Below, piece after piece: positions 9,252 through 11,422 of a DNA stretch of 35,255 bases. The notes beneath the pieces were generated by a model, which had not been told where the DNA came from, did no database searches, and saw only the letters and a list, made by a program, of their open reading frames with translations. Each line of letters opens with the position of its first letter. Positions within the stretch are counted from its first letter, which is position 1. The translations under genes were made by a program, and so were the position numbers. The DNA comes from a virus (Duplodnaviria; Heunggongvirae; Uroviricota; Caudoviricetes), in IMG/VR virus record IMGVR_UViG_2913147268_000009. One strand, given 5' to 3'.

Positions 9252-10901
9252 ATGACCACTGTGAATAAAAAGTTAAAAAAAACTGCATCTGGCGCGATTA
9301 CATGGTCGGTAATTGTTACCCAGATATTATCTCCAGTTTCTCTTTCTTTGATCCCAGCAAACAGTTTTGCATCATCTGGTAATAAAGATGTTACGCAAAT
9401 TTATGCCAGCGATGAGCATGCAAATAAAGTGGCCTCATTTGCAGCAAGTGCAGGTCAGAGCCTGGCGAATAATAATGCAAGTAGTTTTGCTGTAAATACT
9501 TTATCAACTCAGGCGACAAAAGAGGTCGTCGACTGGTTGCAACAATATGGCAATGCGCGCATCAAGCTTAATGTCGATGATTCTTTTTCCTTGAAGGATT
9601 CATCATTCGACTTTTTATATCCATGGCTGGATACTCAGGATTATGTGTTATTCAGTCAGACATCACTACATCGTACTGATGACCGAAATCAGACCAATAT
9701 TGGTTTGGGGATTCGTCATTTCACTCCTGATAACGCAATGTTGGGTGCGAATGTTTTCTATGATTACGATTTAAGTCGTAGTCACTCTCGTGCAGGTTTT
9801 GGGGTTGAGTACTGGAGGGATTATTTCAGGCTTGGTGTAAATACCTATTTTGGTCTATCTGACTGGAAGAACAGTCGTGATATTGATGATTATCTGGAAA
9901 GACCTGCAAATGGCTGGGATTTTTCTGCTGAAGGATGGCTACCTGCTTATCCGCAATTAGGGGCATCTATTCAGTTTGAAAAATATTATGGTAAAAATGT
10001 CGGGTTATTTGGAAGCGATAACCTGCAGGAAAACCCTTACGCAGTTACTGGGGGAATTTCTTATACACCAGTTCCTCTGATTAAGTTTTCTGCACAGCAT
10101 AAGCAAGGACAGAGCAACACTCACGATACAACCTTTGGTGTTGAGTTTAATTATCGCCCGGGCGTTTCCTTGGCTGAACAGCTTAGCAGCGATAATGTTG
10201 CAGTTATGCGAGAAGTCCAGAACCGGCGTTATGATTTTGTTGAACGAAATAACAACATTGTTCTGGAGTACAAGAAGAAGCATGCACTGAAAATCAGTTT
10301 GCCAGAGTCTGTTCAGGGGGAGGGGGAATCAATCATCCCTGTAACACTGACAATCAACAATGCTAGTGGTGGTATCAAGTCTGTACAGTGGAATGATAGT
10401 GCATTCACTGCGGCTGGCGGCAAGATCAGTGGAAATGGCACATCATGGCAGATCACTTTACCGGCTTATAAAAGCGAAGGTGTAAATTCGTGGAATGTTG
10501 GAGCCACAGTACAGGATAACAGAGGCAACGTTTCCAACTATGCCGTGATGAATATTAGCGTTACTGATAGTGGTGTCTCGACGGCTGATTCGTCTTTTAC
10601 ACTGGATGGAGATTCGTCGCCGACAATCTCTGCTGATAGCCAATCCACTTATCCGATAGTATTAAGCCTGAAAGATAGTAACGGTAAGGCATTAACCGGA
10701 CTGGCTGATGACATTGAAATGTCAGTGGAATTTACAGCAGATAGCAATAGTGCTCGACAGCGTGAAACGGTAACTGCTCCGTCATTAGGCGCGGTAGAGG
10801 AAATCTCTGCTGGTGTATATCGCTCTGTTCTGACTGCTGGTTCGCAGGCTGGTACGGTACGTGTAACTGCAAAAGTTCAGGGAAAAACCGTTTTTCCCTG
10901 A
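9252..10901 (+). CDS. Inverse autotransporter (intimin/invasin-family outer-membrane adhesin), short or truncated
   Basis: 549 aa: N-terminal signal-like segment, a central region with alternating aromatic beta-strand pattern typical of the intimin/invasin beta-barrel (FDFLYPWLDTQDYVLFSQTSLHR...GFGVEYWRDYFRLGVNTYFGL...), then two Big-like repeats. AT-rich upstream region 9003-9251. Ends 10 nt past a palindrome centre. Confidence 0.7.
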   Translation: MTTVNKKLKKTASGAITWSVIVTQILSPVSLSLIPANSFASSGNKDVTQIYASDEHANKVASFAASAGQSLANNNASSFAVNTLSTQATKEVVDWLQQYGNARIKLNVDDSFSLKDSSFDFLYPWLDTQDYVLFSQTSLHRTDDRNQTNIGLGIRHFTPDNAMLGANVFYDYDLSRSHSRAGFGVEYWRDYFRLGVNTYFGLSDWKNSRDIDDYLERPANGWDFSAEGWLPAYPQLGASIQFEKYYGKNVGLFGSDNLQENPYAVTGGISYTPVPLIKFSAQHKQGQSNTHDTTFGVEFNYRPGVSLAEQLSSDNVAVMREVQNRRYDFVERNNNIVLEYKKKHALKISLPESVQGEGESIIPVTLTINNASGGIKSVQWNDSAFTAAGGKISGNGTSWQITLPAYKSEGVNSWNVGATVQDNRGNVSNYAVMNISVTDSGVSTADSSFTLDGDSSPTISADSQSTYPIVLSLKDSNGKALTGLADDIEMSVEFTADSNSARQRETVTAPSLGAVEEISAGVYRSVLTAGSQAGTVRVTAKVQGKTVFP

Positions 10902-11220
10902 ACTTTTGCAGTTACACGTACCGTACCAGCCTGCGAACCAGCAGCCAGAACAGAGCGATATACACCAGCAGAGATTTCCTCTACCGCGCCTAATGACGGA
11001 GCAGTTACCGTTTCACGCTGTCGAGCACTATTGCTATCTGCTGTAAATTCCACTGACATTTCAATGTCATCAGCCAGTCCGGTTAATGCCTTACCGTTAC
11101 TATCTTTCAGGCTTAATACTATCGGATAAGTGGATTGGCTATCAGCAGAGATTGTCGGCGACGAATCTCCATCCAGTGTAAAAGACGAATCAGCTGTCGA
11201 TACATCACTATCAGTAATGG
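10560..11220. repeat. Spacerless inverted repeat (palindrome) with ~330-bp arms
   Basis: Arms at about 10560-10887 and 10891-11220 are reverse complements with only a few mismatches; centre CAGGGAAAAACCGTTTTTCCCTG at 10878-10900. Both flanking ORFs encode the same C-terminal peptide (...AGSQAGTVRVTAKVQGKTVFP). Confidence 0.85.
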
Positions 11221-11422
11221 CTGCCTGCTTAATATTCAGAGTAAAGGTTTTTCCCTGAACTTTTGCAGTTACACGTACCGTACCAGCCTGCGAACCAGCA
11301 GCTAAGTTACCAATTCTCGTCTGATGGCTACATACGGCGGTCAGTTTACGCTTACCAGGAAAGGCAGAAACAATGCCGGATATTTCTGCTGAGCGCAGAG
11401 TCGGCACTGATAATGTGCTCAC
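10877..11422 (-). pseudogene. Big-domain repeat fragment, mirror image of the autotransporter C-terminus
   Basis: 181-aa ORF containing two Big-like repeats, each ending AGSQAGTVRVTAKVQGKT; N-terminal 40 aa are unrelated. A 56-bp direct repeat lies at about 10892-10947 and 11248-11303. Confidence 0.4.

Follow-up and report, generated by a model that had tools for sequence, protein, structure and literature searches.

We analysed a 35,255-nt stretch of viral DNA (Caudoviricetes; IMG/VR record IMGVR_UViG_2913147268_000009; hereafter the window), in which the gene for an intimin/invasin-like adhesin appears to end at the centre of a long palindrome. Two open reading frames (ORFs) meet there tail-to-tail, one of 549 amino acids (aa) on the plus strand (9252..10901) and a Big-repeat ORF of 181 aa on the minus strand (10877..11422), and both end in the common C-terminal peptide ...AGSQAGTVRVTAKVQGKTVFP. 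An initial annotation, made from the sequence alone, had described the two ORFs and their shared end peptide as well as a VLTAG versus VLAAG difference between the arms of the palindrome, all of which we confirmed. It had left three explanations side by side: a real fold-back inverted duplication that truncated the adhesin, a recombination substrate for C-terminal variation, or an artefact of assembly or of chimeric reads.

By repeat search, the palindrome is the longest inverted repeat of the window (~6 times as long as the next longest) and consists of two arms of 328 nt each, 10561-10888 and 10890-11217, which are 99% complementary. Such a repeat greatly exceeds what would arise by chance. 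The earlier description of arms of ~330 bp and ~99% identity agrees with these values; a centre of one nucleotide (10889) lies between the arms. Four mismatches were found between the arms (10573/11205, 10577/11201, 10583/11195 and 10833/10945), and a 249-nt core within them is identical (10584-10832 and 10946-11194). The 56-nt direct copy that had also been reported does exist, with its position off by one base (10890-10945 recurs at 11247-11302, not at 11248-11303); it largely coincides with 11246-11301, an exact inverted copy of 10834-10889.

The sources of the pieces that make up the window were mapped by local BLAST against loci of the strains EC958, THO-003 and 4/1-1 (L002 denotes the EC958 locus numbering, and L003 and L004 are THO-003 loci). 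Window positions 1-10893 were colinear with EC958 L002 1867-12758 at 99.98% identity, the relative of this left block being the icd-integrated lambdoid prophage of Escherichia coli sequence type 131 (ST131) strain EC958. The adhesin gene of EC958 is intact: it spans 4266 bp, encodes the 1421-aa inverse autotransporter beta domain-containing protein WP_022645049.1, and has the replication gene P on one side and an alpha/beta-hydrolase gene plus the nin region on the other. The comparison with related genomes that the initial annotation had named as a check on the palindrome thus returned a normal, colinear 1421-aa gene at this locus, against a truncated adhesin.

In Pfam, the 549-aa product of the window carries an IAT_beta domain (PF11924; E 5.9e-102; residues 57-334, with the whole profile covered) and one Invasin_D3/Big-type domain, while the full-length EC958 protein carries seven Invasin_D3 and five Big_1 stretches. 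Moreover, the beta-domain of the 549-aa product matched the solved barrels of invasin (4E1T) and intimin (4E1S). With an IAT barrel and immunoglobulin (Ig)-like passenger repeats, the underlying gene is an inverse autotransporter (type Ve), and it is already annotated as a member of the intimin/invasin family and a moron of the ST131 prophage. Positions 9252..10889 (plus strand), identified by the EC958 match and by IAT_beta, are the genuine 5' part (546 codons) of this prophage gene, which breaks off where a contig stops rather than through a mutation. Compared with WP_022645049.1, the window shares 99.98% DNA identity over the first 546 codons (9252-10889), the IAT_beta barrel, the Big/Invasin_D3 repeats and the locus between the replication gene P and the nin region, but it covers in native order only the first 38% of the gene; the remainder lies outside the window, save a flipped piece of 412 nt. 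In the organism itself, an intact adhesin gene is almost certain. As for a published name of the prophage adhesin, the literature gave only a general survey of E. coli inverse autotransporters, which mentions neither EC958 nor prophages. No relative of the adhesin gene was found in the phage collection, where the only match was to 55 nt of a tail-fibre gene (window 11302-11356).

The intact gene contains three tandem Big repeats, each of 357 bp and coding for 119 aa, R1 (L002 12427-12754), R2 (12784-13111) and R3 (13141-13468), which are ~98% or more identical, share one orientation and are joined by 29-nt linkers. The left arm of the palindrome (10561..10888, plus strand) is R1, as it carries the R1 alleles at unit sites 42, 46, 52 and 302 of 357 nt. 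On the right, the 412 nt at 10890-11301 match the opposite strand of L002 12700-13111 with a single mismatch, and therefore the right arm (10890-11217), which lies within them, copies not the left arm but the next repeat, R2. The EC958 segment starts with the final 55 nt of R1 and continues through the linker and R2; its length is that of one 357-nt repeat period plus 55, and the same shared sequence bounds both ends. By its match to L002 12700-13111, 10890..11301 (minus strand) is a separate contig that holds the end of R1, the linker and a collapsed copy of R2/R3. Furthermore, the four mismatches between the arms (10573, 10577, 10583 and 10833) are exactly the sites that discriminate R1 from R2 in the intact gene.

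The apparent centre of the palindrome, 10889..10890, is a butt join at which the native continuation is broken and which no genome match crosses: the native sequence reads ...GGGAAAAACC|TTTACTC, whereas the window reads ...GGGAAAAACC|GTTTTTCCC. Once 10890-11301 is flipped, its first 56 nt are identical to window 10834-10889, with which the left block ends. Merging the two across this 56-nt overlap yielded 11,245 nt that aligned to L002 1867-13111 with two mismatches and no gaps (99.982%), and in the merged sequence the reading frame is open over 664 codons.

The limits of these pieces were compared with a k-mer multiplicity scan of the EC958 locus at k=55, 56, 57 and 59. Only k=57 ended the run of k-mers unique to R1 at L002 12755, which is window 10889; the run ended at L002 12753 under k=55, 12754 under k=56 and 12757 under k=59. 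The last 57-mer unique to the R1 path (10833..10889, plus strand) runs from the R1-specific A (10833) to the base on which the left contig ends. The 412-nt piece has exactly the limits at which the runs of 57-mers of multiplicity 2 begin (L002 12700) and end (13111). Such pieces are the expected output of a de Bruijn-graph assembler working at k=57, with contigs that overlap by k-1 = 56 nt, and the 56-nt stretch at 11246-11301 represents the k-1 overlap vertex on the other side of the 412-nt contig.

Exact terminal overlaps of 56 nt recurred at three other joins of the window. Positions 14876-14931 are the reverse complement of 34103-34158, the 56 nt directly before a run of N; 15100-15155 overlap with 15709-15764 (reference overlap L004 9473-9528); and a 154-nt piece at 32757-32910, with identical 56-nt ends (a 98-nt loop + 56), is a small loop in the assembly graph, its sequence resembling intergenic repeats of the repetitive extragenic palindromic (REP) or bacterial interspersed mosaic element (BIME) type. 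Among the pieces whose limits were mapped, none is shorter than 119 nt, a length above 2k = 114. A SPAdes-type scheme with K=55 (overlap 55, self-loop of 357+55) was also considered and rejected: it would leave a stray C at 10889 and need chance extensions at all the other overlaps, and the k-mer scan fits k=57 only.

Independent occurrence of the junction was examined with a 201-nt probe centred on the palindrome, which was searched against 5,426 complete genomes. The repeat was present in 559 of them, and in none (0/559) did a match run past the centre. A 41-mer across the centre was likewise absent from the contig collections of viruses, species-representative genomes and metagenomes, and exact look-ups of the 549-aa and 181-aa products found no record of either. 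Wild-type E. coli does not stably maintain spacerless palindromes of more than ~150-200 bp, which SbcCD cleaves.

These results bear on whether replication, through a template switch, folded back on itself at the end of a Big repeat and so truncated the adhesin. The palindrome is indeed present in the sequence as given, and a tiny native inverted motif, AAAC-C-GTTT, could have seeded such a switch. However, i) the arms carry the alleles of two repeats of an intact gene, R1 and R2, and do not copy one segment; ii) the right-hand piece is one repeat period plus k-1 long and ends in the same 56-mer; iii) the outer flank is not native, as the sequence jumps at 11302 to a fragment that adjoins an IS66-family element and then to roughly 16 more unrelated ones; iv) the junction is absent from all 5,426 complete genomes; and v) a palindrome of this kind would be destabilised by SbcCD. 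Since the arms are distinct repeats, the right flank is unrelated and the flip restores the native gene, a real fold-back duplication is contradicted, and we regard it as very unlikely. The same R1/R2 alleles and the same restoration contradict the second proposal of the initial annotation, a recombination substrate for C-terminal variation. A further candidate was a programmed, shufflon-like inversion or cassette system that swaps C-terminal Big domains, and inverted, near-identical coding repeats are known from shufflons and tail-fibre inversion systems. Yet none of the 559 repeat-bearing genomes has an inverted arrangement across the centre, the EC958 gene lies between those for the replication protein P and an alpha/beta hydrolase and adjoins no recombinase, the intact gene keeps all its repeats in a single orientation, and the would-be cassette ORF is a chimera over a contig join. 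The likelihood of such a system is therefore negligible.

The 201-nt probe matched each genome at 2 to 12 places (median 6). As the probe is palindromic, each repeat copy matches both of its halves, and the counts therefore suggest roughly 1-6 repeat copies per complete genome. Such a range would amount to genuine variation in repeat number (or to extra gene copies).

To the right of the 412-nt contig, the window continues with roughly 17 or more short pieces, each 119-930 nt long and in either orientation, that are butt-joined into a chain (11302..16309, by local BLAST; statements on mapped pieces of this interval exclude 13264-13407, 13862-14389 and 14686-14931). Each mapped piece was 98-100% identical to a distant site in ST131-type genomes, the sources including an IS66-family element (its flank), a CP4-like island (Gp2/zinc-ribbon genes), another island (antirestriction/JAB genes) and prophages (fragments of gpJ, DUF968 and further genes). 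In no complete E. coli genome were two consecutive pieces found together. The first piece, 11302-12231, equals THO-003 L004 8001-8930 and starts beside the IS66-family element in a distant CP4-like island. The 181-aa ORF (10877..11422, minus strand) spans the join 11301|11302, with its first ~40 codons in this piece and the rest in the flipped repeat contig; it is a chimeric frame and not a gene. Beyond the chain lies a long contig of 16.4 kb (16310..32756, plus strand) from a different lambdoid prophage with lysis, head and tail genes, 99.99% identical to THO-003 L003 22080-38526; its THO-003 counterpart is situated ~1 Mb from the icd site, next to yecN. Finally, 32911-35255 belong to a pap/IS3 region from another chromosomal site, which against ST131 strain 4/1-1 resolved into three colinear parts split by runs of N.

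The two N runs measure 260 (33054..33313) and 219 (34159..34377), while the true distances in 4/1-1 are 297 nt and 190 nt respectively. Because the lengths differ from the true distances, these runs are estimated scaffold gaps; database masks, the other candidate for their origin, were ruled out on the same figures. Sized N gaps indicate a draft, paired-end short-read scaffold assembly. Scaffold links carry sized N runs and the other joins have no spacer, which is explained most simply by a draft assembly whose individual contig and scaffold records were placed one behind the other.

An artefact of a different origin would be a chimeric or fold-back sequencing molecule that was assembled into the sequence, such as a chimera from multiple displacement amplification, an unsplit template/complement long read or a ligation concatemer. 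Fold-back chimeras do yield spacerless palindromes, and the short downstream fragments, with overlaps of 0-6 nt, look like a ligation concatemer. On the other hand, a fold-back of a single molecule would have identical arms, whereas the arms here differ at the R1/R2 sites; the breakpoints lie at vertices of the k=57 graph with constant 56-nt overlaps and are not random; the mapped fragments all belong to repeat families (insertion sequence (IS) flanks, paralogues of CP4-like islands, prophage) and are not a random sample of a genome; and the sized N gaps point to paired-end short-read scaffolding. We therefore consider a chimeric molecule very improbable. The artefact named by the initial annotation was right in kind, but the form it was given, a chimeric read or collapsed arms, is replaced by a butt join of two contigs.

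Several of the short pieces duplicate sequence found elsewhere in the window. The 195-aa "antirestriction" ORF at 12369-12956 (minus strand) contains an internal duplication, 12595-12726 being identical to 12847-12978, because a 132-nt contig that copies the interior of the preceding 615-nt piece was pasted after it; this ORF is an artefact. Likewise, the adjacent 148-nt pieces at 14390-14537 and 14538-14685 are exact copies of 32502-32649 and 17848-17995 respectively, both within the 16.4-kb block, and probably represent repeat nodes that went into the long contig and were, in addition, given out as pieces of their own.

Taken together, we put the probability at about 93% that the palindrome is an artefact of contig concatenation or scaffolding in a short-read assembly made at k=57 and not a feature of the genome. 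Several observations stand behind this estimate: the pieces have limits that fit k=57 and overlap by 56 nt, the native gene is restored once the small piece is turned round, the window contains N gaps, the surroundings of the join are a mosaic, and the junction was found in none of the collections searched. Goh et al. 2019 (PMC6714894) point to misassembly as a possible consequence of tandem Ig repeats in inverse autotransporters. The following course of events would produce the window. An E. coli ST131-like strain would carry a normal adhesin gene with three nearly identical 357-bp tandem Big repeats. An assembler run at k=57, presumably one that follows the Velvet/ABySS convention, would trace the unique path up to the last 57-mer with an R1-specific base, so that the long contig stops at 10889, and would give the linker plus the collapsed R2/R3 copy as a contig of its own, 412 nt long and with the shared 56-mers at its ends. 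During repeat resolution, the assembler would have duplicated repeat nodes. The records would then have been concatenated after assembly without spacers, and the 412-nt contig would have come to lie, reversed, directly behind the long one. The palindrome thus seems spacerless because both contigs end at one graph vertex, and the 99% agreement of its arms is that between R1 and R2.

The step of node duplication is needed because the 249-nt core is found both in the long contig and in the 412-nt piece, and because the 132- and 148-nt pieces repeat the interiors of longer ones. Here lies much of what weighs against a contig artefact of this kind: i) a strict de Bruijn graph would not put an identical 249-nt core in two contigs; ii) nor would it yield separate pieces of 132 and 148 nt whose sequence already lies inside longer ones; iii) node duplication in repeat resolution is thus an added assumption; and iv) the absence of molecules spanning 10889|10890 was inferred and not observed in reads. 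The converse, that a real fold-back inversion at the end of R1 has been kept despite SbcCD and agrees with k=57 by coincidence, is in our judgement exceedingly improbable.

Among known systems, contig breaks and misjoins of de Bruijn assemblers (Velvet/ABySS-type) share with the window contig ends at the last unique k-mer, constant 56-nt terminal overlaps, a collapsed repeat given as a short contig of one period plus k-1, repeat-derived mini-contigs of at least 2k and N runs of estimated size inside scaffolds. The window differs from them in that its pieces are joined without an N spacer and that some repeat nodes are present twice. With biological long palindromes (SbcCD substrates in E. coli), it shares on paper a spacerless inverted repeat with arms of ~330 bp, but its arms come from two adjacent direct repeats, its outer flank is not native and the junction has no independent occurrence; in vivo, the structure in the window would be expected to be unstable.

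The result matters for data hygiene and not for biology. The window is a pseudo-molecule made of butt-joined contigs and scaffolds of a draft ST131-like assembly, and therefore every feature that spans a join is spurious, among them the truncation of the adhesin to 549 aa, the reverse ORF of 181 aa, the antirestriction ORF with its duplication and the apparent hybrid prophage. In windows from the same source, a test for k-1 overlaps offers fast recognition of such joins.

As it stands, the window resembles one lambdoid prophage, with the early region of the icd prophage followed by the lysis and morphogenesis region of the other. This apparent hybrid is without Q, nin and holin genes, and the block at 16310-32756 begins inside ydfR. 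Within the first piece behind the 412-nt contig, 11302-11356 (55 nt) are 100% identical to part of a lambda-like side tail-fibre gene and lie at the point where, in THO-003, the IS66-family element stops; a second copy, diverged to 88%, is located at 15651-15708. The window begins exactly at an integrase stop codon and finishes at a gene start, and these end points suggest that it was excised by a provirus caller.

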